From NCBI GenBank assembly GCA_043803745.1, contig JAZDJS010000021.1:1-64000 (forward strand): 64,000 nucleotides of DNA. The letters run 5' to 3'. Source of the stretch: an archaeon. GTDB lineage: Archaea > SpSt-1190 > DYHY01. Shown here piece by piece: positions 19,903-53,163 of the stretch. The first letter of the stretch is position 1, and each line of letters opens with the position of its first letter. The notes beneath the pieces are model-generated. The model worked only from the letters and a program-made list of their open reading frames with translations. It did no database searches and was not told the DNA's origin. The translations under genes were made by a program, and so were the position numbers.

Positions 19903-20102
19903 TTTTCTTTTGCGCCCGTCAACGGAGCTTTTCTTTTGCGAAAAGAAAAGATGGGTTGGGAGTGGACTGGACGGGAGTCCCCTACCGGACTTCGGCTAGC
20001 GCCTCAGGAACCCGTGACAGTGGGGTTTTCTTTTGCGCCCGTCAACGGAGCTTTTCTTTTGCGAAAAGAAAAGATGGGTTGGGAGTGGACTGGACGGGAG
20101 TC
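19903..20102. repeat. 77-bp direct repeat (period 123) containing the tRNA-Ala 3' end and its trailer hairpin
   Basis: 19903-19979 matches 20026-20102. Confidence 0.92.
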
Positions 20103-20157
20103 GAACCCGTGACCTCAGCGTTGCGAACGCCGCATTCTACCACTGAACTACCAGCCC
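20086..20157 (-). tRNA. tRNA-Ala(CGC)
   Basis: GGGCTGG/CCAGTCC acceptor with G3:U70; anticodon arm CGGCG-TT-CGC-AA-CGCTG; GGTTCGA T-loop. Confidence 0.96.
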
Positions 20158-20190
20158 GTGCGTCTATCCAAGTTCAGTGGCGGTATATTA

Positions 20191-20312
20191 GCATTCCTGA
20201 GCCATCAGGCAAAGTCCGTGAGCGCACGGATACCACTGAACTACCCGCCCTTTTTTTACTGAACCCGAGCCATCGCAGGCGAGGTCCGCGCTTGATGCAC
20301 GGATACCGGCCC
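20191..20312 (-). repeat. Two interrupted copies of the tRNA-Ala 5' end
   Basis: GGGCGGGTAGTTCAGTGGTA[34 nt]GAATGC (20250-20191) and GGGCCGGTA[39 nt]GTTCAGT (20312-20258). Confidence 0.85.
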
Positions 20313-20405
20313 TTGAACTTTTGGAAACTCTTCCGGGTTTTTAATAGATTCTGTAGGTCTGCAAAGGTAAGATATTTAAATAATCACTAGGTAATGATGA
20401 ATTAG

Positions 20406-20813
20406 ATGACTAAAAAGAGGGGCTACGCACTGCGCGTCGGGGAGTATCTTCACGAGCTTTGGCCCAACGCAATCCTCTGCCGCCCTGACAAGGAAATCCC
20501 TCAGAAAAACGGAAAGAGGCCTGACTGGCTTGTTCTCGACTCGGTTGATGAGCTTGACGGACGGACAACATATCGAGTTTTTCCCGTTGAAGTCAAACAG
20601 AGACACGCGCTGGATGGAGAAGAACAAATACGCAGGGCGACTACAAGGGCTGTTGTCGATTTTTACCGCAGAAGACCTGATGTAAGACCTGCGGTGACTG
20701 AAATTCTCCGGGGAAGTTGGGAACTTCTTCCAGGGTATGTTGCTTCATCTGAATCGCCTCCGGAAGGCGCGCCAATTCAACACCTGCTCGTTCCTTTGAG
20801 CTATCATCGTTGA
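20406..20813 (+). CDS. putative PD-(D/E)xK nuclease
   Basis: KRPDWLV...PVEVKQ motif in a 135 aa ORF. Confidence 0.55.
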   Translation: MTKKRGYALRVGEYLHELWPNAILCRPDKEIPQKNGKRPDWLVLDSVDELDGRTTYRVFPVEVKQRHALDGEEQIRRATTRAVVDFYRRRPDVRPAVTEILRGSWELLPGYVASSESPPEGAPIQHLLVPLSYHR

Positions 20814-22012
20814 GCGCTTCTCAAATCCCGTTTAGGAAACAGGAAAATCCCCAGCGCGAACAGAGGAATGACTGCGGCGAATGCGAATGCTGCAGAAGGC
20901 CCGGAATATTTCCAGAGGAGCCCCGCAATAGCCGAAGCTGGAAGATAGACAAGCCCGGTTACGAAGCTGTAGAGACCGATTGCGCTTGCCCGGGTCTCCT
21001 TTGCGGATGTGTCGGAGATGTAGGCTTTGCTCTGCGCCTCGTCAAGCGTGTAGAAGATTCCGAAAAGGAGGAACAGGATGATTATCGTCTCCCGGGAATT
21101 CGCAAGAAGGAAGCCTATTGAGATTGCGGAGTACAGGACATATTCTCCGGCAACAAGATATTTCCGGCCTATCTTGTCGCCCAGTTTCCCGAGGGGGACT
21201 GCAAACAGGAAGAAGGAAACGTTGAAGGTTGCATAGAGGAGAACGACCTCGCTTGCGGAGAAGCCGACAAGATATGCCTTGAGGAGGAGGAAGGAGAAGC
21301 TGAAATAGGAAAGGGAGAAGACTGCCGAGGAAAGAAGGTAGCGCTTCAAATCCCCGGAGAGGGTTCCGAGAATCTGGAAGGGATTCGCGCGGATTGCTCT
21401 TTTCCTCGGCTTCCGGTCCTTCACGAAAAGGACAAGGACAAGGACGGAAAGAATTGCGGGAACGAGAGCGACTGCGAAGAGGAACCGGAACGCTGAAGGG
21501 GTTTCCCCGAGGGACTTGAGAATCAGATATGCAACGAAAGGTCCCAAAATTGCCCCGGCCTTGTCAAGCATTTTGTGGATTCCGAACGAAGCCCCGGTCT
21601 TCCCTTCCGAGGAAATCGTTGATATTAGCGCATCTCTCGGAGCGCCGCGGATCGATTTTCCTAGGCGCTCGACAACCCGGAAAAGGGCTGCCCCGAAAAC
21701 CGTCGGGAGGAAAAGGATTATTGATTTCGCAGCAGTCGAGAATCCGTAGCCGAAAACCGCGAACGGCTTTCTTTTGCCAGTTTTGTCGGAAAGGTAGCCG
21801 GAAACAAAGTCAAGGGAGGAGGCCGCGAAATCAGAAAGGCCCTCGACAAGCCCGAGGAGCGCCTGGGATGCCCCAAGGATTACAGTGAAGAAAACGGAGA
21901 AAACGGAGAAAATCATTTCCGAGCTTATGTCAGTCAGGAAGCTGACGATTCCTAGAATAATTATTTCTAGGGGAACCCCGAAAATCTGCCTTGGCTTTCT
22001 TTTCTCGCCCAT
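20804..22012 (-). CDS. MFS transporter
   Basis: DISSEM, GYLSDKTGKRK, RLGKSIRGAPRDA, GKLGDKIGRK. Confidence 0.93.
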   Translation of the reverse strand: MGEKRKPRQIFGVPLEIIILGIVSFLTDISSEMIFSVFSVFFTVILGASQALLGLVEGLSDFAASSLDFVSGYLSDKTGKRKPFAVFGYGFSTAAKSIILFLPTVFGAALFRVVERLGKSIRGAPRDALISTISSEGKTGASFGIHKMLDKAGAILGPFVAYLILKSLGETPSAFRFLFAVALVPAILSVLVLVLFVKDRKPRKRAIRANPFQILGTLSGDLKRYLLSSAVFSLSYFSFSFLLLKAYLVGFSASEVVLLYATFNVSFFLFAVPLGKLGDKIGRKYLVAGEYVLYSAISIGFLLANSRETIIILFLLFGIFYTLDEAQSKAYISDTSAKETRASAIGLYSFVTGLVYLPASAIAGLLWKYSGPSAAFAFAAVIPLFALGIFLFPKRDLRSAQR

Positions 22013-22070
22013 TTAGGTCGTGGTCCTTTTTCGTTTTCCCGTGAAAGGTCCTCTGCAGAGGAGGTTTCAG

Positions 22071-22157
22071 CGCCGAGAATGGGATTTGAACCCATATATC
22101 CCCGAAGGGAAACCAGCTCTCAAGGCTGGCGCGTTGACCGGATTTCGCTATCTCGGC
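22071..22157 (-). tRNA. tRNA-Ser(UGA)
   Basis: GCCGAGA/TCTCGGC-G; anticodon arm CCAGC-CT-TGA-GA-GCTGG; long variable arm. Confidence 0.96.
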
Positions 22158-22192
22158 AGGTTCTAAGGCTTGATGGTAGTTTATAAAATGAA

Positions 22193-22310
22193 GTTTTTCT
22201 TACGCCCGTCAACGGATTTTCTTTTTGCCAAAAAGAAAATGGGTTGGATGTTGACCGGATTTCGCTCTTATCTCGGCGTGCGTTAAGGCAAGGAGGGAGT
22301 TTATAAAATG
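22193..22310. repeat. Shared hairpin module plus a duplicate of the tRNA-Ser 5' end and its promoter
   Basis: 22250-22277 copies 22133-22157 (+3 nt); AGTTTATAAAATG at 22178-22190 and 22298-22310; 22203-22247 resembles 19913-19959. Confidence 0.85.
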
Positions 22311-22332
22311 GGCGCTGATTGGAAGAGAGACG

Positions 22333-22521
22333 ATGGATTCTCCTTCTCACCAAGCGAAACCCGCAAGGGAAAAGCGCCTCCAGGTGGACTGCATGAACTG
22401 CGGGGAAGCGGTTGACATAACTGGCAAGGCTGCGGGGGAGAGAATATTCTGCCCTGAATGCAAAGCGGAATTCGTCGTTGCCCTGATAGACGGGCATCTT
22501 GATATCGAATTCCTGACCTGA
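22333..22521 (+). CDS. small Zn-ribbon protein (LysW-like spacing)
   Basis: CMNCG...GE.I.CPECK; no C-terminal EDWGE. Confidence 0.7.
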   Translation: MDSPSHQAKPAREKRLQVDCMNCGEAVDITGKAAGERIFCPECKAEFVVALIDGHLDIEFLT

Positions 22522-22564
22522 TTCGGCCGGAAAAACTTTTAACCTAGGAACGTGACGTTCCGGG

Positions 22565-24661
22565 ATGGCAAAGAGGAAACTCATCTTGGTGGGCTTGGTT
22601 TTGGCATATTTGGTTATTGTCGGGGGATTTTCTCCGGGGACTGGGGATTCCGCGCTCTCTTCGGGAAGCGCTCTTGTCGCATGCACAATGGATGCGAAAA
22701 TCTGCCCCGATGGCAGCGCGGTTGGAAGGACCGGACCGAACTGCGAGTTTGCGCCCTGCCCTGAAGATTCAACATCATCTGGGGGAGGCCAAACTGAGAT
22801 TGCGAACCCCGCTTCGGTGAAATGCATCAGGGAGGGGGGGAAACTGGCAATCAAAGAAGCTGACGGGGGACAAATCGGCATCTGCCACTTTCCCGACGGA
22901 ACCTCCTGCGAAGAATGGGCATATTACCGGGGCGAGTGCGGGACGAATTCCGGAGGGGAAATTTCGCTGCCGACAACCCTAATACAGCCAATTGACTCCG
23001 CATGCGCAAGAATCGCCCTCCTAAGGCAGGAGCTTGCGAAATATAGGGAACTTGTCTCCCTAACCGAAAACGAGCTTTCCTCAAGGGGATATTCCCTTGA
23101 AAAACTCAAGCTCATTATCAGCGAAAAGGAGAAACTTGTAAGGGAGAAAATCTCCGAGTGTCCTGAAAGCTCGGAAACCGGCGGAACAAGCACATCCTCT
23201 TCCGGAGGCTCCGGGCAGGGGGTCCTCCAAAGCGGCGACGGCTGCCTTGAAATCCAAAACAGGATACAGAAATACAAGGAAATTCTCCTTCTGAATGACG
23301 AGCTCCTTTCCGAGAAAGGGCTTGCCAGGGAGAAAATCAAGGCTCTGCTTGATGCGGAAGCTGGGAAATATTCCGCCTGCTTGGGTGCAAATCGGGCAAC
23401 TGAAACCTTGCCTGCGGTCCCGGTGCTTACGCCCTGCGGCGAGGCGAAGGGGCTTTCCGAAAACGTTCTCTATTACAAGAAGCTCCTTTCATTGACTGAT
23501 GAAGAGCTTGCGGAAAAGGGCCTTGAAAGGGCGCTGGTCCAGAAGAAATTCGAGCAAGCTGACGCTACGCACAACAATGCAGTCTCCAACTGCGTTGTCA
23601 CAAAAGCGGAGCCGATTTCTTCCGAGGCAGTCCCGATAGGTCCCTGCGAACAGGTCAGACTTGTCGAGCAGAAAATCCTCTACTACAAAAAGCTCCTTGG
23701 CCTTACGGATTCGGAGCTTGCGGAGAGGGTGAAGGAATACACGCGCGAGAACCTGAAGGCGAACCTCGAGTCTCTTGAGAAAACTTATGCCGAGTTCGTC
23801 CGCAAATGCAGGGCGGCTTCCGGGGAAACCCGGGCGCAACCTTGTGTTCCCTCCCAGGAAAAGATGCGGGAGTATGAAGGTCTTTCCGAAAAGCTCAAGG
23901 CAGCGAACGCTAACGGAGACAAGGCGCTCGCAGAGGAGATAATGCAGGAAATCCGGGCTGTGAAGGCTGAGATTGCCGCGTCGAATTCCTGCGCCCAGGA
24001 AATTTCTGCAGCGGCAATTGCAAAGCCGACTGCAGTTGAAAATTCCCAGGAAATTTCCAGCTATTACAAGAACAAGCTGGCGACGGTGATGTCGTCCGCC
24101 TCGGGAGTTGACAGCCAAATCTCCTCCCTGAAGGAACTCAGGACCGAGATAGACAAGATGATTGAAGCGCTCCTGAAGAGGAAGGAAAGCGTTGATGCCG
24201 AAGAGCTTTCAGGTCTCGCAACTGTCGAGATTTCGGAAGACGGGATGAAGGTCAACAACAAGGTTGTCGAATCCCTTGTAAGCAACGAGATTGTCACAAG
24301 GATAAACAACCGGGAGATGAAGGTTCTGAAGGGCGCTTCCGGGGTTTCCCTTGACGACGGCTCGGAAATAAAGCCGGATGTCGGAGAGCCGGTGATTGTC
24401 GAGGATGGGAAAGTGAATATTGGCGGAAATGAGCTGAAAATCCTTCCTGGCGAGCTTGGGACCTTGATTGGCTTCGCCCCCGACTCGGTTGAGTTGGGGT
24501 CTGAGGATGGGAAGCTCGTCTATGTTGCAAGGATGAATGAAAAAAGGAAGCTTTTCTGGATAATCCCAGTTCAGGTCGAGAAAACGGAGAAAATAGACGC
24601 TGAGAACGGTGAGTCCCTCGGGGAAAGCATGCCTTGGTGGTCAGCCCTGGCTTCAAGATAG
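22565..24661 (+). CDS. Large exported protein: Cys-rich module, DUF333-like domain, four helical repeats
   Basis: Signal/TM; ACTMDAKICPDGS.VGR.GPNCEFAPCP; ANPAS..C...GG...CEEW.YYRGEC; repeated Y..LL.L...EL. Confidence 0.8.
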   Translation: MAKRKLILVGLVLAYLVIVGGFSPGTGDSALSSGSALVACTMDAKICPDGSAVGRTGPNCEFAPCPEDSTSSGGGQTEIANPASVKCIREGGKLAIKEADGGQIGICHFPDGTSCEEWAYYRGECGTNSGGEISLPTTLIQPIDSACARIALLRQELAKYRELVSLTENELSSRGYSLEKLKLIISEKEKLVREKISECPESSETGGTSTSSSGGSGQGVLQSGDGCLEIQNRIQKYKEILLLNDELLSEKGLAREKIKALLDAEAGKYSACLGANRATETLPAVPVLTPCGEAKGLSENVLYYKKLLSLTDEELAEKGLERALVQKKFEQADATHNNAVSNCVVTKAEPISSEAVPIGPCEQVRLVEQKILYYKKLLGLTDSELAERVKEYTRENLKANLESLEKTYAEFVRKCRAASGETRAQPCVPSQEKMREYEGLSEKLKAANANGDKALAEEIMQEIRAVKAEIAASNSCAQEISAAAIAKPTAVENSQEISSYYKNKLATVMSSASGVDSQISSLKELRTEIDKMIEALLKRKESVDAEELSGLATVEISEDGMKVNNKVVESLVSNEIVTRINNREMKVLKGASGVSLDDGSEIKPDVGEPVIVEDGKVNIGGNELKILPGELGTLIGFAPDSVELGSEDGKLVYVARMNEKRKLFWIIPVQVEKTEKIDAENGESLGESMPWWSALASR

Positions 24662-24670
24662 AAAGGAGTT

Positions 24671-25876
24671 TCACTTGAGGCTTTCCCGGGCTGCTGAGAT
24701 TGCGGCAGGGATTCCTTCCGGGTTCCTGCCCGAACCGGTGATGAGCGTAGGTTTTCCGCCGCCCCTTCCGGAAACAAGTGGGAAGAGTTTTTCCGAGAGC
24801 TTCGGAAGGTCGAGCGCGCATTCAGGAGATTTGGCAAGGACGACCGTGAAGAAATCCTGTTCAATTCCGCCGAAGATAAGGGCAACCGCGCACGCCTGAG
24901 AAACGAGCCTTTCCGCAAGCTCCGCAAGGTCCCTCCGGTCAAGAATCCCGCAGTAGTTTTTCGAATAGAAGGAAATTTCCCCGAACTTTTCCGGGACGGG
25001 GTTCTCCGATTTGGCAATCAGGGCGGATTGCCTCCGGGAAGTTTCCCTGAGATGGAGGAGTTCCTTCTTCTGATTGACCGCGGTAGGGACGAGCTTTTCC
25101 GGCTCAACCTGGAGGGCAAGGGCCAGCTCAAGCGCCCGGTTCGCAAGGGAGCCTGATTCGGAAACCGCCCGCTCGCCGGCAGCGAACTCTACTATTGTGG
25201 ACTTTCCGGATTTGTTTATTGAAAGAATCTTGAAATGGCCTATTTCCGATGTGTTCTGCAAATGCGTCCCCGAGCATGCCGCGAAATCCTCCCCCTCGAT
25301 TTCGACAATCCGGATGTCCTTTTCCGGAAGCCGTTCCTCCTTCAGGCGCGAATCCGGGAGGGCTGATTTTGCCTCGGCAAGCGTGGAAAAGATTCTGCTT
25401 TTGACTGGGATTGCCCTCCTGATTGCGGAGTTCGTCAGTTCTTCGGCCTCAAGGAGCTGCCTTGGCTCAAGCTCCCCGGAGAGGAAGAGCTTGCCGCGCT
25501 CGGGGGAGAAATCAACCTTGTCTATCCGGACCTCCGGGCAGACAATTTCGAGCCTTGAGAAAAAGAGGTGCTCTCCGGTGTGGAGCTGCATCAACGGGAA
25601 GCGAAAGCCCCATTCTATTTTGCAGTTACAGTCGCCTGGGGAAAGCGGGGAATCTATTTGATGGAGGATTTCCCCGTCCTTCTCAATTGTGTCAAGGACG
25701 CGGGCGGTCCCGATAGCCCCCCTGTCGCCCGGCTGGCCTCCTCCCTGCGGATGGAACGCCGTCCTGTCAAGGATTGCGAAGGTTTTTCCTGCGAGGATCT
25801 TGATTCCTGTGATTCTTGTGGAGAATTCCTTGAGGAAGGGATCGGCAAGATAGATTTTTCCAGTCTTGGTGGACAT
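24671..25876 (-). CDS. AlaX-family alanyl-tRNA editing protein with DHHA1 domain
   Basis: TAFHPQGGGQPGD, MQLHTGEH, CSGTH, GRGGG. Confidence 0.9.
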   Translation of the reverse strand: MSTKTGKIYLADPFLKEFSTRITGIKILAGKTFAILDRTAFHPQGGGQPGDRGAIGTARVLDTIEKDGEILHQIDSPLSPGDCNCKIEWGFRFPLMQLHTGEHLFFSRLEIVCPEVRIDKVDFSPERGKLFLSGELEPRQLLEAEELTNSAIRRAIPVKSRIFSTLAEAKSALPDSRLKEERLPEKDIRIVEIEGEDFAACSGTHLQNTSEIGHFKILSINKSGKSTIVEFAAGERAVSESGSLANRALELALALQVEPEKLVPTAVNQKKELLHLRETSRRQSALIAKSENPVPEKFGEISFYSKNYCGILDRRDLAELAERLVSQACAVALIFGGIEQDFFTVVLAKSPECALDLPKLSEKLFPLVSGRGGGKPTLITGSGRNPEGIPAAISAARESLK

Positions 25877-25964
25877 GCTCTTGACCCCCTCGGGGGTTTA
25901 TTTAGCTGCTTTTTGGGAAAGCTTAATAAGCTTGAAAAAGAAACCACTTGAAAGGGGTTTAGAA

Positions 25965-27389
25965 TTGCCAGAAGAGGATGTCAGGGAGAACTACCAGGTA
26001 GATCCCGAGAGGCTCCAAAATCACCTGCTTTCCGAGGGAACTGACCTTTCCGGCGGAAAGCCCGTTTATGGCTCGATTGTCCGGGCGATTTCTGATGTTG
26101 CAAGGACAACTGATGTCCAGGTTGACGGCGCCCCGAAGGATTCGGTTTTCGTGCGCGAGCTTTTGGAAGCAATTCCAGAGGCTGAAATTATTTCATCTCC
26201 TGGGAAAAGAATCAAGAGGGGTGTCGGAACGGCTGTAGTCGAGTCATATCCCGGGCTTGACCCCGAAGGATTCCAGGAACTTGTTTCAGCGAACGGCAAG
26301 TTGCGGTTCGTTGTCCTCAGATATCCCTCGGATGACGGATTGCTGGCCTCCTCACCGGAGCTCCTCCCGAGCAGGGGCGCCGCGGTTTTCGCCGGAGCCG
26401 AGCAGGATCCGTATTCAACCAAAGAAGACAGGGCGGCAAGAATTGCAGGGCTTGTCATGCGCGAAGCTGAGTCGCGGGGGGCGGTCATTGAAGGCGCAGC
26501 TCTACACCTTGCCTGCGAGCAAACTCTCCGGTTCTGCGAGGTAAGCAGGTCCGCTGAGGAAGGAGGGATTGACGGAAATTTCGCGGCAATCATTGTTGCA
26601 AGGGCGCGGGCAAATGCGGGAAATTCTAGGGAAATTGCGGAAGATGCAGTGAGGGAAGTAATTCAAAAGGAAGAAGCCCGGATGAAGGGGAAATACGAAA
26701 GCTTTGCCAGGTATTTTCCAAAGGGTTATTCGGGAAACGGGCGCCTGGTGTTTGAGCTTGGCGTCGATGTTTTCGAAACGGGCGCCCTGGGCGACATGAA
26801 CATGATGGGGCTTGTAATTGCCCCGGGGCGGGGAAGGATAGTTGATTCGCTTGCGAGGTTCGATCCGGAGAACGGGGACCGCGGCGGCGCGTTCTCAAAA
26901 GGGAACGACGATGTCCTAAGCTACCTCCTTGACAGATACCCGGGAATATTCTCCTTGCGCGACGCCCGGATAGTTTCGATGTACTGGAACGAGGTGACTG
27001 GAGCAAGCTCCTCCGCAATAAAGGCCGCGGGTCTTGAGGCCTGCATTGCCGGGGTCCCTATACTTGAGAATTTTGCAGGGACTGGAGCAATCGGGGCTAA
27101 CGGCCTTGTCGAGCATATAGGGGGGGTTAATGAGAAAATAGAAGCGGCCCATTACATTTTCAAGAGAAATCGGGCCGGAGAGAACTCGCCGTTCGGTTCA
27201 GTCATAATCCCCAGGAGAAATCTTGGAAGGCTTGCCCTGCCAGACGAGGTTGCCCAGGATGTCCGGGATGGAAACTTCAGGATTTACGCGGTTGACACAA
27301 TTGAGGAATATGTCGAATGCCTAACTGGAAAAAGCTATCAAGAAGTTCACGCGGCTGCGCTTGAAAAAAATCGGACAGGTTCGGGCTAG
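25965..27389 (+). CDS. Lon-like S16 serine protease lacking a recognisable ATPase P-loop (start approximate)
   Basis: GASSS, TGAI...G.V..IGGVNEKIE, VIIP..N, RIYAVDTIEE. Confidence 0.8.
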   Translation: MPEEDVRENYQVDPERLQNHLLSEGTDLSGGKPVYGSIVRAISDVARTTDVQVDGAPKDSVFVRELLEAIPEAEIISSPGKRIKRGVGTAVVESYPGLDPEGFQELVSANGKLRFVVLRYPSDDGLLASSPELLPSRGAAVFAGAEQDPYSTKEDRAARIAGLVMREAESRGAVIEGAALHLACEQTLRFCEVSRSAEEGGIDGNFAAIIVARARANAGNSREIAEDAVREVIQKEEARMKGKYESFARYFPKGYSGNGRLVFELGVDVFETGALGDMNMMGLVIAPGRGRIVDSLARFDPENGDRGGAFSKGNDDVLSYLLDRYPGIFSLRDARIVSMYWNEVTGASSSAIKAAGLEACIAGVPILENFAGTGAIGANGLVEHIGGVNEKIEAAHYIFKRNRAGENSPFGSVIIPRRNLGRLALPDEVAQDVRDGNFRIYAVDTIEEYVECLTGKSYQEVHAAALEKNRTGSG

Positions 27390-28282: not shown

Positions 28283-28283
28283 C

Positions 28284-29267: not shown

Positions 29268-29307
29268 TTTTTCCTTTTCTTCTTTTCAACGGCGCGGAAG
29301 AAGCTGC

Positions 29308-29514: not shown

Positions 29515-29579
29515 GAAGGGGATTTTCCGGCAAGGATATAAAACAGTTGCCCCTTTCTCCCTTGCCGGGGAAAAGTGAA

Positions 29580-33417: not shown

Positions 33418-33419
33418 GT

Positions 33420-39925: not shown

Positions 39926-39936
39926 GCTCAATTTTC

Positions 39937-42359: not shown

Positions 42360-42384
42360 TTGACCACTTCAAAGTCGCTTATTT

Positions 42385-43242: not shown

Positions 43243-43251
43243 CCCCCAACT

Positions 43252-44538: not shown

Positions 44539-44628
44539 CCGCAGGAAGAGGAGGCCGCGATTTATAAAAACTGTTTTCACCGCCTCCCGCGGCAAAAGTA
44601 TTAAGTGCCGGACAGGCAAAACCCACGA

Positions 44629-45408: not shown

Positions 45409-45573
45409 ACTACCTGCCCGTCAAAGATCCCCCCTAACGGGGGGCTTTCTGTGTTTGCGAACACGGATCGCGCTGGAGCAGGAGACATGAATCGCGGGAT
45501 ATCTTACCACGGCCCAAAAGCCGAGGCTTTCGCGATTCAGTAAACGAGCGGGGGTCAATATAGGCAGTAGTTC
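45406..45573. mobile_element. 168-bp MITE-like element with terminal inverted repeats and IS200/IS605-end-like hairpins
   Basis: TGAACTACCTGCC ... GGCAGTAGTTCA; internal CCCCC-TAAC-GGGGG and CCACGGC-CCAAAA-GCCGAGG hairpins. Confidence 0.55.
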
Positions 45574-45616
45574 ATGTCACGCCGCCTTTCCGGTGCGGGG
45601 GTTCGATGCGGCGGGA

Positions 45617-46354: not shown

Positions 46355-46410
46355 CTTTCCGGGTAGGAATGCGGCTCTTTTTTATAATACCGGCGCACAA
46401 GGGGATTTTG

Positions 46411-47109
46411 ATGGAGCCGGCTTTCACAAAATTCAGGATTTCGAAGATAACCGAGGCGCTCCCGGGGAAGGTCAGGATTTTCCGGCTTGAGCCTGTTGAA
46501 GGGACGGTTCCTGGAAGAAAGCCGGGCCAGTATGTTGCGCTGAAGCTTGGCGAGGTCGAGCGGTCCTATTCGCTTTCAGGACCCGTCGAGGCGGACTATC
46601 TTGAGGTGACTGTCAAGCTTGCCGGGTCGTTCACTGGAAAGCTTTTCGGGCTTGGCGAGGGGGCGGAGATTCTCGCTTCCCCGCCCCAAGGCAGGTTTGT
46701 TCTTGAAGTGGAAAAGGTCGGGGCGGCGGAAATCGTTTTCCTTGCCGGGGGGGTAGGAATAACCCCCTTCTCCTGCTTTGCAGATTACATTTCCCGGAGA
46801 AGAATGGAGAACAAGGTGACCCTGATTTACGGGAGCCGGGTTCCCTCGGAAATAATATTGCGGGAGAGAATTGAGCTGCTTTTCTCGGAAATTCCTAACG
46901 GGAAGATTGTCTACACCGTCGACTCTGCCGAGCCCGGCTGGACTGGGAACGTCGGCTTCATCGGGAAGGACCTGCTTGAGAAAAGCGTTGCGGCTCCGAA
47001 GGAAGCGAAATATTTCATCTGCGGCCCGCCTCCGATGGTGAAGGCAATTGTCGAGGTCCTGAAGGAAATGCAAGTTCCCCTGCAGAACATCGCTTTGGAA
47101 GGCTGGTAA
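46411..47109 (+). CDS. FAD/NAD(P)-binding oxidoreductase (FNR / cytochrome b5 reductase-like)
   Basis: PGQY, RSYS, G.FT, AGGVGITP, ICGPP.M, terminal EGW. Confidence 0.92.
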   Translation: MEPAFTKFRISKITEALPGKVRIFRLEPVEGTVPGRKPGQYVALKLGEVERSYSLSGPVEADYLEVTVKLAGSFTGKLFGLGEGAEILASPPQGRFVLEVEKVGAAEIVFLAGGVGITPFSCFADYISRRRMENKVTLIYGSRVPSEIILRERIELLFSEIPNGKIVYTVDSAEPGWTGNVGFIGKDLLEKSVAAPKEAKYFICGPPPMVKAIVEVLKEMQVPLQNIALEGW

Positions 47110-47790
47110 ATGCTTGTCCTTTTCGACATTGACGGAACTTTGGTTGCGAAAGGAACGGGCGCACACGAGCGGGCCTTCGTCTTGGCAATTGACAAAATAT
47201 ATTCAGTTGACTCGGAGAAGGCATTCTATTCTCTCAAATTGCACGGCAGAGTTGACAAGGAGATAATAGTTGAAACTGTCGGGAAACTGGGGATCCCGGA
47301 ATCACTTGCAAAGAAAAAGGTTCCTGACTGCAAAAAGCTTGTCGAGGGCTTATTTCCCGGGGAGTTGAAACGGGATTTCTCTGGCCAAGTGCTTCCCGGA
47401 GTCAGGGAAATTCTCTCCAAACTGAAGAAACGAAAAGTCAAGCTCGGGCTGCTCAGCGGGAACTTCCCGAATGTTGCCTACGGCAAGCTGAAACGGGTCG
47501 GGTTAGAGAAGTTCTTTTCCAAAAAACTGAGCGGGCTTGGGGATTCGGGATTCAGCCGGGTCGAGGTTGCCTGCAAGCTTGCCCGGAAGGTTGTAAGGAG
47601 AACAAGGGGAGAGAAGATAGTCCTTGTCGGGGACACGCCCAAGGACATCCTTGCAGGCAAGGCCATCGGAGCAGTGACTGTCGCAGTTGCAACCGGGGGA
47701 GCAACGAAAGCCGAACTTGCACGGGCAAAACCGGATTTCCTTATCCGAAATATGTGGGGCTTTAGAAAGATTATTGAAAACCTTATTTGA
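47110..47790 (+). CDS. HAD-family hydrolase
   Basis: FDIDGTL, LLSGN, VGDTPKD. Confidence 0.92.
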   Translation: MLVLFDIDGTLVAKGTGAHERAFVLAIDKIYSVDSEKAFYSLKLHGRVDKEIIVETVGKLGIPESLAKKKVPDCKKLVEGLFPGELKRDFSGQVLPGVREILSKLKKRKVKLGLLSGNFPNVAYGKLKRVGLEKFFSKKLSGLGDSGFSRVEVACKLARKVVRRTRGEKIVLVGDTPKDILAGKAIGAVTVAVATGGATKAELARAKPDFLIRNMWGFRKIIENLI

Positions 47791-48442
47791 AAATCTCGCC
47801 GGTCCCGTCGGACCAGAGTAGGAGGTCCAGTTCCGCGAGGGGGATTTTCACCTTCCGGGAAAATGCGCGGAGTTTCTCCTCAAGCTCAAGGTACTTCTTG
47901 GGCGGGATGCTTTTCGGGATTTCCTTTAGTATTCCGAGGGGAACAAGCCGCCGAAGGACGTGGATGTCGAGGATTGCAAGGTCCTCGCCGAAGCCGATGT
48001 TCCGGAGGAAATGGCTTGCCTCCTTCATCCCAAGCCCCTTGACGCGCGCGACTAGCAGCTTTCGGGATAGGAGGGGGTTTGAAAGGGGGAGGGAAGGGGT
48101 TATGGAGATTTTTCCTCCTTCTGAGAAGACTCGTCTCGCCAAAGAAACATATCTTGCCTTGTTATTCGGGAACCTCACCCCCGAAAGGCTTGAGCGGATT
48201 TGTGTGAGCGGGAGGCTCTTGCGCGGGAACCTCTTGTTTCTGAGGGAATCCGCTGCTTTCTCCGCTGCCCGCGCGCGCGACTGGGGGGTGAGGAGGCAGA
48301 AGACGAGCTCAAGGAAGATCTCTTCCTCGGGAAGCCTTCCGGCCTTTTCGAAATCGGAGAGGCGAGATGCAATTTCAGCTTTCTTCCGAGAATGGTCCTT
48401 CAAGAGTCTCTGGATTGAAAGGGAACTTCTTGCTCCGGTCAT
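47783..48442 (-). CDS. ogg: 8-oxoguanine N-glycosylase/DNA lyase
   Basis: ELVFCLLT, RFPNNKARY, KGLGMKEASHFLRN.G, AILD.H, LDL.LW. Confidence 0.93.
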   Translation of the reverse strand: MTGARSSLSIQRLLKDHSRKKAEIASRLSDFEKAGRLPEEEIFLELVFCLLTPQSRARAAEKAADSLRNKRFPRKSLPLTQIRSSLSGVRFPNNKARYVSLARRVFSEGGKISITPSLPLSNPLLSRKLLVARVKGLGMKEASHFLRNIGFGEDLAILDIHVLRRLVPLGILKEIPKSIPPKKYLELEEKLRAFSRKVKIPLAELDLLLWSDGTGEIFK

Positions 48443-48493
48443 TTTTCTTGGGGGTGCGCAAGGGTTTATATTCTTGGGCCTCGCGGGGCTAAA

Positions 48494-48892
48494 GTGAGTT
48501 TTTCCAAACTCGATTATGAGAAAACTTCCGCCAAGGGGGTCCTGATTGCAGCCGTTGAAACTGGCCGGGCAAAATCTGTCTCGGTGATAAAATTCCTCCC
48601 CGGCTCAAGCTTTCCAAGCCATTCCCACGGGAAAGCAACGGAGCGTTATTTCGCGGTTTCAGGCAAGGGCATCGTTTCCGTTGGGAAGCTGAAACGGGTT
48701 CTGGACAAGGGGGATTCAATCGAGATTGGGCGAGGAAGGGTTCATTCCGTTTCCAATCCGTTCAAGAGGCAGTTCGTAATGGTCGAGATTTCAATTCCCG
48801 GATTTGACGAAAAAGACGTTCTGTTTGGACCAAAAGGCCGGAAGATTCAAGCGGAAAGGATTAAATACCGGAAGAGCCGGCCTTTCCACTAA
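48494..48892 (+). CDS. cupin domain protein
   Basis: HSH....E.Y...SG.G...G..H.V.N. Confidence 0.85.
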   Translation: MSFSKLDYEKTSAKGVLIAAVETGRAKSVSVIKFLPGSSFPSHSHGKATERYFAVSGKGIVSVGKLKRVLDKGDSIEIGRGRVHSVSNPFKRQFVMVEISIPGFDEKDVLFGPKGRKIQAERIKYRKSRPFH

Positions 48893-48893
48893 T

Positions 48894-50051
48894 ATGAGGG
48901 GCAGCCTTTTTGCGGATTCAACTGGATTCTCCGAGAAAAACCTTTTCAGGGACGAGGGGATCCTTTACTCGGATTTCCTTCCGGACAAGCTGCCGCACAG
49001 GGAAGGCCATGCGCGCTTCCTTGCTGATTGCCTGAGGCCAATCACCGGCGGGAAGAGCCCGGAGAACGTTTTCATCTGGGGTCCCGCAGGGGTCGGGAAA
49101 ACCTCCGTTGCGAAGTTCGTCCTCCGGGAGATGAAGGAGCACACCGAAATCCCTGTTGTCTACATAAACTGCTGGCAGAACGACACGAGGCACGCGGTCC
49201 TGACGACAATCGCATATGCGCTTGGGAGCTTTGCGCCCCGGAGGGGGACTGCGACCGATGAAATCTTCGAAAAGGCCTGCGAGGGGATGAAAAGGCGCGG
49301 GGGGAAGGGGCTTGTGATCGTGCTTGACGAGATTGACAAGCTCCTTGCGAACGACGGGGGGCGGCTTCTCTACGACCTTGCAAGGGGACCGGTCTTTACC
49401 GGAAAGACGGGAATCGTCATGATTTCTAACGACGAATATGCCCTCCGGAAACTCGACGACCGGACGAGGAGCAGCCTCTCCTACCAAGAGTCCTCATATC
49501 CCGCATATTCCTTCGAGGAGCTGAAAGGGATTTTCTCGGAAAGGATCGGGGCTGCGTTCGTCGAGGGTTCCGTGAAAGCGGGAGTGAACTCCGCGGTTGC
49601 GAGGATTGTCGCGGATTCCGGCGGGGACGTAAGGCTCGGGCTCGACTGCCTCCTCAAGGCGGGACGGCTTGCAGAATCCGACGGGAAGGATTTTTCGGTC
49701 GAGCACGTCCAGAAGATGATTGGGAAGATCCAGAACAGCAAGACGAAGGCGATAATCACGGGGCTCGAGAGAAACCTCCTTGGAATCGTCAGGATTCTCG
49801 CTGCGACCGGGATAAGGGAGAAAACAACCGGGGAGCTTCTTGCCGATTATTCGCGGGAAATGGGGGAAACGAACGAGCGGACCTTCAGGAACTACCTGAC
49901 TGAGCTCGAGACGAAGGGAGTGATAACCTCGGTGATGAGCGGCAAGGGCCAACGGGGGAAAACAAGGATAATCACGCTGAAGAACTCCGAGATGGTAAGG
50001 AGAATCCTTCAATCAGCTAATGAGGATGGCAAAGGAGGAAAGGAAAAATAA
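48894..50051 (+). CDS. cdc6: Orc1/Cdc6 replication initiator
   Basis: P..LPHRE, GPAGVGKT, YINC, VLDEID, LD.RTRS, GDVR, wH-domain G.RG.T. Confidence 0.93.
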   Translation: MRGSLFADSTGFSEKNLFRDEGILYSDFLPDKLPHREGHARFLADCLRPITGGKSPENVFIWGPAGVGKTSVAKFVLREMKEHTEIPVVYINCWQNDTRHAVLTTIAYALGSFAPRRGTATDEIFEKACEGMKRRGGKGLVIVLDEIDKLLANDGGRLLYDLARGPVFTGKTGIVMISNDEYALRKLDDRTRSSLSYQESSYPAYSFEELKGIFSERIGAAFVEGSVKAGVNSAVARIVADSGGDVRLGLDCLLKAGRLAESDGKDFSVEHVQKMIGKIQNSKTKAIITGLERNLLGIVRILAATGIREKTTGELLADYSREMGETNERTFRNYLTELETKGVITSVMSGKGQRGKTRIITLKNSEMVRRILQSANEDGKGGKEK

Positions 50052-50053
50052 AT

Positions 50054-50560
50054 ATGGTTGACACGGGAGAGCCGGAGGGAGAAAAGGGCGGGGAGGGAAT
50101 GCTTGAGAAGCTCCCCTATCTTCTGAGGAAGCAGACGCTTCAGGAGGAGATGCCCGAGTTCTCGGAGGAGCGGGACATTTTCAGGCGGGCGCAGGCGGGA
50201 GCGGTCGGGAGCACCCTCCATACCGACAGAATACTCGTCCTTGTCGCAAACTGCAGGGAGGGGACGAAGGCGCTTAACGCGGCAATCGACATTGCCCGCC
50301 AGAACGGAAGCGAACTGGTGGTTGCGTTCTACACCGAGATTATTCCCGCACTGAAGGACCGGGTCATCAGCAGCGGCATAAGGTACAAGCTCATTGCAAA
50401 GCCGACAAGCGCAACGGGCGACATAATGTTCGTGATAAAGAAGGAGAAGGTCGACCTTGCGATAATACCTGAAAAATTCTCGGACAAGCTTTCCGGGATA
50501 AGCCAGGTTACCAAGCAGATTGTGGAGGCTTCCGAGTCCTCGGTCCTTGTCGTAAGGTAG
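50054..50560 (+). CDS. universal stress protein family
   Basis: RILV......AL..A..IA...DL.I...V...IV..S..SVLVVR. Confidence 0.8.
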   Translation: MVDTGEPEGEKGGEGMLEKLPYLLRKQTLQEEMPEFSEERDIFRRAQAGAVGSTLHTDRILVLVANCREGTKALNAAIDIARQNGSELVVAFYTEIIPALKDRVISSGIRYKLIAKPTSATGDIMFVIKKEKVDLAIIPEKFSDKLSGISQVTKQIVEASESSVLVVR

Positions 50561-50571
50561 TAGAAGAACGA

Positions 50572-51816
50572 ATGAGCTTTCCAGTCCTCCCGGTTGCGAT
50601 TTTCGCAATAACCTTTTTCCTTATATTCACCGAGAGGATTAACAGGACGCTTGCGGCGCTCCTCGGAGGATTTTCAATGGTCGCCTTCGGGGTGATAACC
50701 GGAGGGGAAGCGCTCGCATCAATCGAATTCACCGCAATTTCCTCGATTATCGGAATACTCATCCTGGTCTCCGTCGTGAGATCGAGCGGGCTTTTCGCAT
50801 GGCTCGCGATAAAGGTGGTCAAACTTTCGAAGGGGAATCCCGCAAAGCTGATGGTTGCGCTTTCGCTTCTTTCCGCTTTTGTTGCGTCATTCCTAGGGGG
50901 GACTGCGACAATCCTGATAATGGGCGGACTGATCGTCACGATCTGCAAGCAGCTGAACCTGAAAGTTCCGCCTTACCTGATGGCTTCGGCTCTGATGACT
51001 TCGGTTGGGGGGGGATTCTTCCTTACAGGGAGCTCGATAAACATACTCCTTTCAAACGCGGGAGGGTTCTCATTCATTGACTTCTTCAGCAACAGCCTCC
51101 CGATTTCCCTCCTGCTCGGGATAATCACCTCCCTGTTCTTCGTCTGGTATTTCAAAATAGAGAACAAGGAATCGGGGGAAATCCTTCTTGACGAAAAGCA
51201 GGCGATTACGGACTGGAAGAAATTCTGGATTACAATGGCGCTCCTATCCGGGACAATCTTCCTTTTCATAATCTCCGGATTCGTCGGCCTGACCGTCGAG
51301 ATGATTGCAATCGGCTCCGGGATACTTGCGCTTCTCCTTACGGGATTCGAGCCTGAAAAGGCTTTCAGGGAGGTTCAGTGGGAAACCCTGTTCTTCCTGA
51401 TTGGCGTTTTCGTTGTAATGGGCGGCCTTGAGAAGAGCGGGGTCTTCCACGCCGTTGCAAGCGTGCTTGCCCCGATCGTGAAGGGGGATTCCGGAAGGCT
51501 CCTGCTCATAGGGATAATCGGGCCAATATCGGGGATAGTCCACTCCCTTCCGATAACGGTCGCGCTGATACCGATTGTGAAGGAGATTGTCGGAATAACG
51601 GGTGAATTGGCGGGACCCATCTTCTGGACGCTGATTCTTGCCATAAATTTCGGGGAGAACCTGACTCCGCTCGGCTCAACTTCCAGCATACTTGCGATGG
51701 GGATTGGAAAGACCTCCGGCCAGCCGGTCAGCTTCGCGGAATTCCTGAAAATAGGCGCAATTCTCTGCGCAATCCACCTGACGATCGCCGGGATATGGGT
51801 TTTCTTCAGGTACTAG
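50572..51816 (+). CDS. ArsB/NhaD (SLC13/P-permease) ion transporter
   Basis: RTLAAL.G, SGLF.WLA, V.W.TL.FL.G.F, G.NLTPLGS, SF.EF.K.G. Confidence 0.88.
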   Translation: MSFPVLPVAIFAITFFLIFTERINRTLAALLGGFSMVAFGVITGGEALASIEFTAISSIIGILILVSVVRSSGLFAWLAIKVVKLSKGNPAKLMVALSLLSAFVASFLGGTATILIMGGLIVTICKQLNLKVPPYLMASALMTSVGGGFFLTGSSINILLSNAGGFSFIDFFSNSLPISLLLGIITSLFFVWYFKIENKESGEILLDEKQAITDWKKFWITMALLSGTIFLFIISGFVGLTVEMIAIGSGILALLLTGFEPEKAFREVQWETLFFLIGVFVVMGGLEKSGVFHAVASVLAPIVKGDSGRLLLIGIIGPISGIVHSLPITVALIPIVKEIVGITGELAGPIFWTLILAINFGENLTPLGSTSSILAMGIGKTSGQPVSFAEFLKIGAILCAIHLTIAGIWVFFRY

Positions 51817-51862
51817 GTACTAAAAGTAAACTATTTAAGCCGGTCGGGCCCTCCGAGCCCCG

Positions 51863-52258
51863 ATGAGAAACGGAATGTTTTTTGTTGCCTCAGGGATACT
51901 GATTTTCGCGGGGATACTCCTCGCTGGGTGTGTTTCATCAGCGCAGGGACTGGGGGGGAGCCCGGGGGGGAGCCCAGGGGGGAGCCTTAGCACGCCTCCG
52001 ACAACCGCCCCCGCTCCGGAAGAGAAAACCTTCACTCTTTCTGAGATTGCCGGATATTCGACAAAGGAAAACTGCCTGATTGCGATAAACGGGAGCGTCT
52101 ACAACATTACGGGGTATTTCGGCAAGCATCCTGCGGGGGACCGGACTTTGCTTTCCGGCTGCGGGAAGGATGCGACGGGAATCTTCAGCGAGAAGCATTC
52201 CCAGACGGCGTGGCAGCTTCTGCCCTCGTTCTATGCCGGAAAACTGGCCGGGCAATAA
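51863..52258 (+). CDS. cytochrome b5-like heme/steroid-binding lipoprotein
   Basis: Lipobox LAGC; C.I.I.G.VYNIT.Y...HP.G......CGKDAT..F...H. Confidence 0.85.
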   Translation: MRNGMFFVASGILIFAGILLAGCVSSAQGLGGSPGGSPGGSLSTPPTTAPAPEEKTFTLSEIAGYSTKENCLIAINGSVYNITGYFGKHPAGDRTLLSGCGKDATGIFSEKHSQTAWQLLPSFYAGKLAGQ

Positions 52259-52312
52259 AAAAGGATAAAAAGACGTTTTGTCCTCTCTTGACTGAGGCGA
52301 GCGAAAAGAGAA

Positions 52313-52564
52313 ATGTCCTTCCTTGACACACTGAAAGTAATTACCTTCTTCGGAATTCTTGCAGCAGTCTTCATAGTCAGCCTTGGAAGGCGGCTTTTCG
52401 GCTGGGGGATAAAGCCAACTCAGGCCCAGCCTCCACCGCCAAATCCGCCGGGCCCTCAGCAGGTCAGGTCCCCTCAGCCTCCCGAGCAGGGCCGGATTCC
52501 GTCTCCAGCTCGACAACAGCAGTATCCTCCTCAGCAACCACAACAGCAACAGAGGAAGTTCTGA
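52313..52564 (+). CDS. small TM protein with a Pro/Gln-rich tail
   Basis: 83 aa; N-terminal hydrophobic helix and low-complexity PQ tail. Confidence 0.6.
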   Translation: MSFLDTLKVITFFGILAAVFIVSLGRRLFGWGIKPTQAQPPPPNPPGPQQVRSPQPPEQGRIPSPARQQQYPPQQPQQQQRKF

Positions 52565-52590
52565 TTATTTGAAACGGGAAAATGGTTCCC

Positions 52591-52767
52591 GTGCTCCCGA
52601 CGGTTGAGTCATCTTCAGAGGACGAAATCTCGGGACGCGAGCGCGTTAGACCCGCCAGACGAAAAAGTGCGAGTGCTCCCGACGGTTGAGTCATCTTCAG
52701 AGGACGAAATCTCGGGACGCGAGCGCGTTAGACCCGCCAGACGAAAAAGTGCGAGTGCTCCCGACGG
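52591..52767. repeat. Two perfect 82-bp tandem repeats, each carrying the tRNA-Glu 3' end
   Basis: 52591-52672 equals 52673-52754; GTGCTCCCGACGG recurs at 52591, 52673 and 52755. Confidence 0.95.
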
Positions 52768-52830
52768 GATTTGAACCCGTGTCTCGGGCTCGAGAAGCCC
52801 AGATCCTTGGCCGAGCTAGACGACAGGAGC
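52756..52830 (-). tRNA. tRNA-Glu(CUC)
   Basis: GCTCCTG/CGGGAGC-A; anticodon arm TGGGC-TT-CTC-GA-GCCCG; GGTTCAA T-loop. Confidence 0.95.
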
Positions 52831-52924
52831 TTGAGAATCGGGTCTTTCTCCCCGTTTTAAACGTTTTCCATCGAGTTTCGCCCAACCCAAAAATCTTTTT
52901 AACCTCTGTTCTTCCGGTTAGGCC

Positions 52925-53042
52925 GGGTCCATAGCTCAGCCCGGTAGAGCGGCAGTCTTATATGACTGTGTTCTATACACAAAGGATAGACTAGGTCTGA
53001 GTCAGCTGTTGGTCATGGGTTCGAATCCCATTGGGCCCACCA
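52925..53042 (+). tRNA. tRNA-Ile(UAU) with a 41-nt intron (52963-53003) at position 37/38; CCA encoded
   Basis: GGGTCCA/TGGGCCC-A-CCA; anticodon TAT 52959-52961; canonical BHB (CUUA:UGAG helix, UAU and UCA bulges, GACU:GGUC outer helix). Confidence 0.92.
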
Positions 53043-53102
53043 GCCCCTTCAGGGGCTGAAGAAATTCCCACAGCCAGCATTCCCTTTGCGCTCTGAGGGG
53101 CT

Positions 53103-53117
53103 CATTGGGCCCACCAG
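53103..53117 (+). repeat. 15-bp duplicate of the tRNA-Ile 3' end
   Basis: CATTGGGCCCACCAG at 53029-53043 and 53103-53117. Confidence 0.85.
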
Positions 53118-53163
53118 AGCCCGTTTTCTTTTCCGAAAGAAAAAGCCTTCGGGGAAAAAGAAA

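Follow-up and report, generated by a model that had tools for sequence, protein, structure and literature searches.

Two thirds of the tRNA genes in the genome of a tiny, Micrarchaeota-like archaeon are accompanied by partial copies of their own ends, and a short hairpin with covarying base pairs recurs in the modules that carry these copies. The observation stems from a stretch of 64,000 nucleotides (nt), here called the window, that makes up positions 1 to 64,000 of contig JAZDJS010000021.1 (C21:1-64000) in a metagenome-assembled genome (MAG) of 1.23 Mb and 51 contigs (GCA_043803745.1, hereafter G000), whose closest named relative, as judged from isoleucyl-tRNA synthetase, is a MAG labeled Candidatus Micrarchaeum sp. 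(63% identity). An earlier reading of the letters of this window, hereafter the original prediction, had claimed that all four tRNA genes between positions 19,903 and 53,145 carry partial copies of their own ends, and these repeats were confirmed at each of the four loci. With default settings, ARAGORN reports three of the genes; the fourth was retrieved by Rfam and by ARAGORN with introns allowed. We term the 3' copies echoes, and an echo together with its spacer a unit. With somewhat less than even confidence, we favor the reading that these echo modules are non-coding hairpin cassettes acting at the DNA level, which would enter tRNA ends duplicatively or by template switching, expand by slippage and turn over fast.

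Extent and anatomy of the tRNA-end copies

When run on G000 with introns allowed, ARAGORN returned 48 calls, four of which were discarded as false, leaving 44 tRNA genes for analysis. The discarded calls, on contigs C3, C7, C21 (76751-77200) and C26, have introns of 355 to 1498 nt and mature sequences that are not tRNA-like. For 30 of the 44 tRNAs, at least 11 nt of their own sequence are repeated exactly no further than 600 bp away, nearly always on the same strand. Scored as copies of at least 9 nt from the terminal 30 nt, 3' end copies lie downstream of 30 genes and 5' end copies upstream of 13. By comparison, a local copy of at least 11 nt on the same strand exists for 493 of 5000 random 75-mers (9.9%), and when tRNAs were paired with flanks of other tRNAs, only 63 of 1884 combinations (3.3%) yielded one. 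This comparison of every tRNA of the genome with its own flanks had been proposed in the original prediction, whose suggestion of a lineage-wide process, drawn from four of four loci, is borne out by the 30 of 44 tRNAs and by the echoes of class relatives described below.

Echoes are partial copies of the own 3' end situated 30-280 nt downstream of the gene, whereas 5' copies lie about 100 nt upstream. The former begin in the T-loop or in the 3' strand of the T-stem, are mostly 9-19 nt long, and their match to the gene ends at the tRNA 3' end, that is, at the base after the discriminator or at an encoded CCA (the latter in the echo-bearing genes for tRNA-Tyr, -Arg(UCG), -Ile(UAU) and -Met); the 5' copies stop at tRNA positions 10-25. 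Genome-wide, spacers measure 28-139 nt and hold no integrase remnants. The number of units per gene ranges from none to at least four, and many loci have two to four of them. Units within an array are 100% identical at tRNA-Glu (2 x 82 nt), tRNA-Arg(UCG) (2 x 64 nt) and tRNA-Thr(CGU). The spacers of tRNA-Lys(CUU) (44-nt units) and tRNA-His (73-nt units) recur with 100% identity at the ends of other contigs (C24 start and C19 start; C10 end and C14 end), which we read as arrays that run over contig breaks and fragment the assembly. Runs of N also occur inside arrays of two relatives, one of the same genus (G001) and one of the same class (G005).

Some copies are interrupted at fixed points. A hairpin stands directly after GGTTC in the echoes of tRNA-Ala, -Thr(GGU), -Ile(GAU) and -Pro(UGG), and after GGTA in both 5' units of tRNA-Ala, there in sense orientation, while the core in the Ala echo is inverted (these Ala cores are partial matches to the covariance model introduced below). 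A second family of inserts, made of double hairpins, occupies the same two loop positions in other echoes. With respect to transcription signals, the 5' copies of tRNA-Gln(UUG) and tRNA-Val(UAC) are placed between TATA box and gene. A run of at least five T precedes the echo in 7 of the 26 echo-bearing genes, so that co-transcription with the tRNA is not the rule, and in 12 of the 26 a T-run starts at most 40 nt behind the last echo; these mixed positions led us to reject a uniform placement of the units inside the transcription unit. Beside these truncated copies, a call of ARAGORN for an intron-containing tRNA-Arg(GCG) (C10:17898-18019; L335:199-320) is read by us as a tRNA-Leu(CAA) with a D-loop insert of about 30 nt, which can form a hairpin and resembles the core by eye. 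If so, a hairpin akin to the core would be present in a gene that is presumably functional.

A covarying hairpin and an inverted copy of the tRNA end

A word survey of 53 unique units from genera g1 and g3, with echoes starting in the T-stem, uncovered a common sequence context. The five bases before the echo read C-T-C-R-R, with C, T and C present in 36, 34 and 38 of the 53 units, respectively, and the echo itself begins with CC in 42. The word GAYYTYR occurs 12-41 nt upstream of the echo in 36 of the 53 units, as compared with 1148 of 20,000 random 55-mers. In the recurrent fold these elements follow each other in the order 5' arm, GG, bulged A, YY, TC, variable stem-loop, TC, RR, CC and echo.

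We therefore examined pairing in an alignment (A1) of 29 units that were picked by the GAYYTYR word and the echo, and not by the RR bases. The two YY:RR pairs (13-57 and 14-56) are formed in all 29 units, with CG/UA and UA/CG swaps; the pair after them is formed in 26 of 28, and the inner pair 24-52 shows six pair types. The bulged A is invariant (29/29), and the TC/TC internal loop is present in 23 of the 29. The covariation score of 0.292, compared with 0.147 for shuffled alignments, was reached by none of 500 shuffles and exceeds that of all slid controls, although the units are paralogues and their independence is thereby overstated.

The arms behave differently from the core, which is conserved while the arms are specific to each tRNA. 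Pairing of a 5' arm with its own echo is stronger than with foreign echoes (median -9.5 versus -5.7 kcal/mol for 740 mismatched pairs, p = 2e-5). Frequently, this arm pairs with the discriminator and the next base, which identifies it as an inverted copy of the tRNA end and not as a copy of the tRNA 5' strand. The resulting layout is direct-inverted-direct (X..X'..X), and it was also found at the 5' units of tRNA-Ala and in two of three echo-bearing metagenome contigs. Folding is markedly asymmetric between the strands: the strand opposite to the tRNA folds better in 28 of the 29 units (mean -19.0 versus -13.2 kcal/mol). On that strand the TC/TC loop becomes a tandem GA/GA mismatch, and pair 10-59, which is A:C in 12 of the 29 units, becomes G:U. 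The original prediction had noticed neither the covarying pairs nor the asymmetry between strands, nor that the tRNA end is also copied in inverted form.

A covariance model of the hairpin (R1) yielded 24 matches in G000 at E <= 0.001, its training sequences among them; judged by coordinates, 22 of the 24 fall within trailers, distributed over 14 tRNA loci, another coincides with the right-hand repeat of a genomic island described below, and the last lies away from tRNA genes. At E <= 1 there are 37 matches, with about 10 more at intergenic places unrelated to tRNAs. Such weaker or solitary cores were noted at 5044-5084 (minus strand) of the window, at C15:27304-27342, C48:68995-69033, C18:2861-2907 and elsewhere, mostly in seemingly intergenic DNA, with a small cluster on contig C18. 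A looser scan with a text pattern of the hairpin gave 1809 matches against about 883 in shuffled genomes; it was uninformative and is superseded by R1. Two simple explanations of the core were tried and set aside. Its variants show no correspondence with the local T-loop, as judged by eye from a few units and tRNA sequences, and a single family of miniature inverted-repeat transposable elements was rejected in favor of a short shared core, most spacers being unique in a BLAST search of the genome.

The four tRNA loci of the window

The most elaborate arrangement surrounds the intact tRNA-Ala(CGC) gene (20085-20157, minus strand, like all features of this locus unless indicated; ARAGORN, and 67.2 bits with Rfam). 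An exact direct repeat of 77 nt (19903-19979 and 20026-20102, spacing 123 nt) comprises the terminal 18 nt of the tRNA together with 59 nt of its trailer. In transcriptional order, the gene is followed by the first 59-nt trailer copy, found by repeat search and containing a T-rich, terminator-like palindromic module (20026-20084), by a piece equal to tRNA positions 45-55, that is, the 5' strand of the T-stem plus GGTTC (20008-20018), by a 28-nt insert that splits the T-loop of the echo (19980-20007), by a piece identical to tRNA positions 56-73 (19962-19979), and by the second exact trailer and terminator module (19903-19961), which belongs to the 77-nt repeat of 100% identity. The insert holds the hairpin core in inverted orientation (plus strand, 19989-20007; partial R1 match, E 0.29). 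The distal Ala copy is thus a T-arm and acceptor fragment whose T-loop is split directly after GGTTC; its extension to positions 45-55, beyond the insert, had been overlooked.

Upstream of the same gene, a first 5' copy reproduces tRNA positions 1-20 with 19 of 20 nt (20231-20250). It is interrupted after GGTA, at the D-loop position, by a double-hairpin insert (20191-20230) whose second hairpin is the conserved core (20197-20215; partial R1 match, E 0.24), and tRNA positions 21-26 come after this insert. An inverted copy of part of the D-arm of this 5' copy (20171-20184) is predicted to form an 11-bp helix with 20233-20244, closing a long hairpin that has the TATA-like box of the real tRNA-Ala gene in its loop. 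A degenerate second 5' unit (20252-20312) contains a homologous module with a core at 20265-20285 (partial R1 match, E 0.2). Of the one 3' and two 5' copies that had been proposed for tRNA-Ala, the 3' copy and the first 5' copy stand; the second 5' copy (20304-20312), a 9-nt stretch with eight matches counted by eye, is the weakest element of the locus.

At the intact tRNA-Ser(UGA) gene (22070-22157, minus strand; ARAGORN and Rfam), a repeat search located a duplicated TATA promoter (22281-22310) joined to a 5' fragment of the tRNA (22250-22277), together spanning 22250-22310 on the same strand. The fragment corresponds to positions 1-25 with a 3-nt insertion. The predicted duplication of the promoter and the first 25 nt was accordingly seen, as a 42-nt repeat of 76% identity that covers promoter and first nucleotides (22269-22310 versus 22149-22190) and as an exact 17-nt repeat of tRNA positions 9-25 (22250-22266 versus 22133-22149). 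Between the 5' fragment and the real promoter lies a terminator-like palindromic module (22191-22249, minus strand) of the family found in the Ala trailer, with matches of 19-26 nt common to six loci. This palindromic T-rich module was noted at 19913-19959, 20036-20082 and 22200-22246 of the window and on other contigs; it consists of a short stem around a centre of 1-3 nt, followed by a small hairpin of the CCGTTGACGG type. It trails many tRNA genes or their last echo, as well as the tRNA-Ser 5' fragment, and looks like the tRNA terminator of this lineage. A small frame with paired CxxC motifs (zinc-ribbon-like, by eye; about 22330-22530, plus strand) runs divergently from tRNA-Ser and appears to begin just past the duplicated promoter, the palindromic TATA box of which could serve both directions.

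The two remaining loci are neighbors. The intact tRNA-Glu(CUC) gene (52755-52830, minus strand; ARAGORN and Rfam) is followed on its strand by two units of 82 nt, each closing with the last 13 nt of the tRNA, as had been described. Unit 1 (52673-52754) is made of a 69-nt spacer and an echo at 52673-52685, with a hairpin at 52673-52721, and the identical unit 2 (52591-52672; spacer 100% identical) has its echo at 52591-52603 and its hairpin at 52591-52639; each hairpin scores 37.4 bits with R1. On the plus strand, the tRNA-Ile(UAU) gene (52925-53042; 57 bits with Rfam, and ARAGORN with introns allowed) contains a 41-nt intron and encodes CCA. A hairpin-rich 60-nt spacer, unique in the genome (53043-53102), separates it from an echo (53103-53117) that exactly repeats 53029-53043, namely the last 14 nt of the tRNA including CCA plus 1 nt. 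The 15-nt 3' copy claimed for this gene is therefore exact and lies 60 nt behind it, and a T-rich terminator-like module follows directly. In the ultrasmall archaeon ARMAN-2, pre-tRNA-Ile(UAU) likewise has an intron, at the canonical position (excerpt of PMC3239211). Only two CAU tRNAs, an initiator-like and an elongator one, were found in G000; together with tRNA-Ile(UAU), this suggests that AUA may be read without an agmatidine-type tRNA-Ile2.

Nothing gene-sized lies between the copies of the window, as had been stated: the spacers measure 28-92 nt and are too short for a gene. The neighboring genes that were scanned encode a PP-loop ATPase, a transporter of the MFS family and two proteins without any family; among them, no integrase or cargo family was found. 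A search of the window at Rfam gathering scores gave no family other than tRNA, and at E <= 1 over 20 tRNA loci of G000 the matches were tRNA genes and chance matches on them, with none on the units.

Turnover and possible origins of the echo modules

Echoes are widespread in the class, and their sequences change quickly. Counting own 3' echoes of at least 11 nt among the tRNAs examined, which are a part of each genome's set, we found 12 echoes for 25 tRNAs in G001 (same genus), 5 for 25 in G003 (same family; 12 for 25 at 9 nt), 5 for 21 in G002 (same family), 9 for 25 in G004 (same order), 7 for 26 in G005 (same class), these five relatives all having small genomes, and 2 for 18 in G006 (same class, 3.6 Mb). 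At orthologous tRNAs of the relatives the spacers are unrelated, and each echo matches its local tRNA. Over the 19 tRNA types shared by G000 and G001, an echo is present in both genomes for seven, only in G000 for four, only in G001 for four and in neither for four, so that the presence of an echo is nearly independent between congeners. R1 matches at E <= 0.001 number 24 in G000, 14 in G001 and 5 in G003, the only three among 17 genomes of the class to have any. In metagenome contigs with the same 26-nt 3' part of tRNA-Glu, an echo of at least 10 nt was detected at 3 of the 73 loci that offered at least 150 nt downstream, out of 80 kept; a metagenome search with the neighboring PP-loop protein found no close relatives.

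Profile searches for enzymes that could move such modules were run on five echo-bearing genomes (G000 to G004), which are 84-94% complete. In G000 they revealed no Phage_integrase, Cas1, Y1 transposase, TnpB or reverse transcriptase. In the five genomes together, Phage_integrase (PF00589) occurs only in G001, as a tyrosine integrase, and is absent from G000, G002, G003 and G004; Cas1 likewise is confined to G001, Y1_Tnp (PF01797) and TnpB (PF07282) are found in none, and RVT_1 only in G002. The IS91-type Y2 transposase (PF04986) also gave no match in any of the five, but neither did the control, which renders this search uninformative. One locus of G000 does enclose cargo. At tRNA-Ser(CGA) (C45:3300-5400; L332), the last 16 nt of the tRNA, the trailer and the unit are repeated 1.48 kb downstream with 100% identity, and the 1.4-kb insert contains a Fic/DOC gene (297 aa; PF02661, E 4e-19). 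This island shows that the same sites can bracket larger DNA. It is the only one of its kind found in G000, and none of the four window loci has kb-scale cargo.

The mechanism we propose has to accommodate the observed anatomy, the dispersal of a single core among numerous tRNA loci, covariation, strand asymmetry, tandem expansion, turnover and the absence of an integrase. A hairpin cassette would enter a tRNA gene at a conserved loop, in the T-loop after GGTTC or in the D-loop after GGTA or GGTCAA. Entry would be duplicative: either flank of the cassette would carry the stretch between entry point and gene end, in some cases together with trailer or promoter, so that the intact tRNA gene survives beside a truncated echo. 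The palindromic stem of the hairpin might then often lengthen into the neighboring DNA and reproduce the tRNA end there in inverted form, generating the X..X'..X layout, and units would multiply in tandem through slippage or unequal recombination between direct repeats, being quickly gained and lost. The cassettes are presumably mobile; the duplication probably did not precede insertion but accompanied it, through staggered breaks or through template switching during replication, and the modules appear to be selfish or neutral rather than useful. Of the three candidates put forward in the original prediction, a non-autonomous mini-element with duplication rescue fits best, in that one hairpin recurs at 14 loci and in D- and T-loops, while the profile searches detected no enzyme able to move it. 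Decoy attachment (att) sites are unlikely, most echoes being 9-19 nt long and G000 being devoid of an integrase. The third candidate, transcribed tRNA-fragment RNAs, may apply to part of the echoes; in 7 of the 26 echo-bearing genes at least five consecutive T stand before the echo.

Several observations weigh against cassettes of this sort. The searches for integrase, Cas1, Y1, TnpB and reverse transcriptase did not yield a mobilizing enzyme; polymorphism between empty and filled sites was not seen, and we infer movement rather than observe it. Since most spacers are unique when compared with the genome by BLAST and sharing does not go beyond a hairpin core of 20-45 nt, the modules do not amount to one long element with set boundaries. 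R1 finds no core in 14 of the 17 class genomes, where echoes use other hairpins or none; the closing helix, evaluated over 81 units, reaches significance in G000 and G003, borders on it in G001 and is missing from G002 and G004. A generic element could not supply 5' arms that match the respective tRNA; an additional step, for instance palindrome extension or templated copying, has to be postulated. The 5' duplications of tRNA-Ser hold the terminator-like module instead of the core, such that more than one process may act. Finally, covariation and a conserved internal loop would also be expected of a functional RNA.

That the units are functional structured RNAs tied to the tRNA, involved in processing of the pre-tRNA trailer or leader, in its protection, in signaling termination, or acting as antisense hairpin RNAs with sense and antisense copies of the 3' end, is in our estimate unlikely. 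Two pairs that covary in 29 of 29 units, the bulged A (29/29), the TC/TC or GA/GA loop (23/29) and the gathering of G:U-type pairs on one strand would all suit an RNA, as would the constant fit of each echo to its local tRNA even after spacer replacement, the T-run that begins less than about 40 nt beyond the last echo in 12 of 26 genes, as if units were transcribed, and the 5' copies between TATA box and gene at tRNA-Gln(UUG) and tRNA-Val(UAC). A function sits uneasily, however, with the 7/4/4/4 distribution of echoes between congeners, with the wholesale replacement of spacers and unit numbers from zero to at least four per gene, with the T-run of at least five before the echo in 7 of 26 genes, and with cores in both orientations (Ala echo) and at a few sites away from tRNAs. 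Moreover, the better-folding strand is antisense to the tRNA, and no promoter was noticed there, albeit without a systematic search. The units match no Rfam family. RNase P RNA and RNase Z are present in all five genomes, which leaves no processing gap to fill and rules out the units as a substitute for either enzyme. Other readings were discarded on their own grounds. A C/D-box guide or K-turn on the antisense strand is suggested by a CUGA adjoining the antisense tRNA end, but there is no 3-nt bulge by the tandem GA, a C box is not at the right distance, and Rfam gives no match. A minihelix mimicking the top half of tRNA is off the acceptor register, the 5' arms often pairing with the discriminator and next base or with part of the T-stem. 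Retro-copies of mature tRNA disagree with tandem units in which the echoes of genes without encoded CCA run into the gene's own trailer; the next base completes CCA in four last-position echoes, which is within chance. A CRISPR (clustered regularly interspaced short palindromic repeats) array is at odds with spacers that are identical to each other within an array and with the absence of Cas1 from G000.

Doubtful, too, is an origin without any cassette, by replication errors at tRNA genes, in which forks stalled at transcribed cloverleaf DNA switch templates twice and hairpins slip, the products persisting unrepaired in reduced genomes. Such errors would explain X..X'..X on both sides of genes and in two of three echo-bearing, unrelated metagenome contigs, perfect tandem units, the lack of a detected transposase or integrase in G000, class-wide echoes with differing hairpins, and a hairpin stability that is greater on one strand, as expected if flaps or nascent strands drive expansion. 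They would not, acting independently, equip 14 unrelated tRNA loci with near-identical cores that also agree in the apical loop; the core variant is also independent of the local T-loop (few units, by eye), and the background of local repeats in random segments is only 9.9%. Scars of classical site-specific integration, either attL/attR remnants or integrase-less mini-elements with the integrase acting in trans or lost, are quite improbable. The hallmark of such integration is an intact gene behind which the 3' part of the tRNA is directly repeated, with examples in Thermococcaceae (excerpt of PMC9897764), the tRNA-Ser(CGA) repeats on C45 enclose real cargo, and G001 encodes a tyrosine integrase. 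Those repeats, however, are about 44 bp long (same excerpt), whereas echoes are mostly 9-19 nt and the 28-139-nt spacers are free of genes and of integrase remnants. Thirty of 44 tRNAs with differing ends would demand dozens of integrase specificities, Phage_integrase is absent from four of five echo-bearing genomes, precise excision leaves no scar, and integrases do not make the 5' copies, inverted copies and conserved, loop-internal hairpins seen here. We give hardly any credence to an assembly artefact of the MAG. Its 51 contigs, the Lys and His spacers at other contig ends, and the N-runs in arrays of G001 and G005 could be taken as signs of one; the case against it rests on copies that in many cases are inexact and surrounded by unique sequence, and on the recurrence of this architecture, with other sequences, in six other genomes of the collection and in metagenome contigs. 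Mis-assembly, furthermore, cannot yield covariation.

Partial parallels to the hairpin cassettes favored here exist elsewhere. Behind the tyrT gene of Escherichia coli stand tandem 3' repeats, each unit carrying the tRNA 3' end, and the trailer units ending in a tRNA 3' copy at tRNA-Glu and tRNA-Arg(UCG), and at tRNA-Lys and tRNA-His by our reading of the contig ends, are alike in this respect. However, tyrT is one bacterial locus, whereas the present units are genome- and lineage-wide, share a hairpin and include inverted and 5'-side copies. Repetitive extragenic palindromes and bacterial interspersed mosaic elements (REP/BIME) with their REP-associated tyrosine transposases (RAYT), and palindrome-associated transposable elements (PATEs) derived from IS200/IS605, are small, dispersed, imperfect palindromes that fold on one strand and have conserved bulges or mismatches. 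The modules resemble them as a dispersed multi-copy hairpin with a conserved core (R1 matches in G000, G001 and G003), but Y1 (HUH) transposase and TnpB were not found in the five genomes searched, and the modules are associated with tRNA ends, contain copies of the sequence that they target and show no fixed tetranucleotide target. Intron transposition is known from Thermoproteales. ARMAN-2 has non-canonical tRNA introns at T-loop positions 53/54 and 59/60 and a broad-specificity epsilon2 splicing endonuclease (excerpt of PMC3239211). The likeness to these introns of the same phylum lies in short structured inserts of T- and D-loops, and tRNA-Ile(UAU) has an intron in both organisms; however, the inserts described here sit in truncated copies, at position 56/57, beside intact tRNA genes that lack them. 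Minimum free energy folding, the only type applied, gives two T-loop hairpins for the Thr(GGU) echo and another structure for the Ala echo, neither being a 3-4-3 bulge-helix-bulge. In Caldiarchaeum subterraneum, a 5' tRNA fragment upstream of an intact gene is read as the product of a mobile element (excerpt of PMC3293823), but this is one locus with a 1.8-kb recombinase element, as opposed to the dozens of loci in G000, where spacers measure about 100 nt and a recombinase was not found. A literature search gave no account of genome-wide tRNA-end copies with hairpins; the supplementary tRNA tables of PMC3239211, which may bear on this, lay outside it. None of these nearest systems combines genome-wide copies of own ends on both sides with an inverted copy and a covarying hairpin.

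Partial tRNA copies are usually read as footprints of viruses or plasmids. Here they accompany two thirds of the tRNAs in a genome without integrase, are organized about a hairpin with covarying pairs, and are replaced from one sister species to the next. In practical terms, echo arrays appear to break assemblies at tRNA genes, and echo modules can mislead tRNA finders, as in the four false giant-intron calls of ARAGORN in G000, and mimic att sites in searches for genomic islands. If the units were functional RNAs, most tRNAs of these organisms would have a dedicated partner RNA. A bolder proposal, to which we assign a low probability, is that echo modules are a new, integrase-free class of elements for tRNA ends, which would write inverted and direct copies of the target end in a target-templated manner, through host replication or another enzyme, and would be a DNA-level source of the non-canonical D- and T-loop introns and tRNA fragments of ultrasmall archaea. 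If the modules are mobile, they would represent a new mode of tRNA-gene targeting and a route to the disrupted tRNA genes of DPANN archaea, with their introns at odd positions and their gene fragments.

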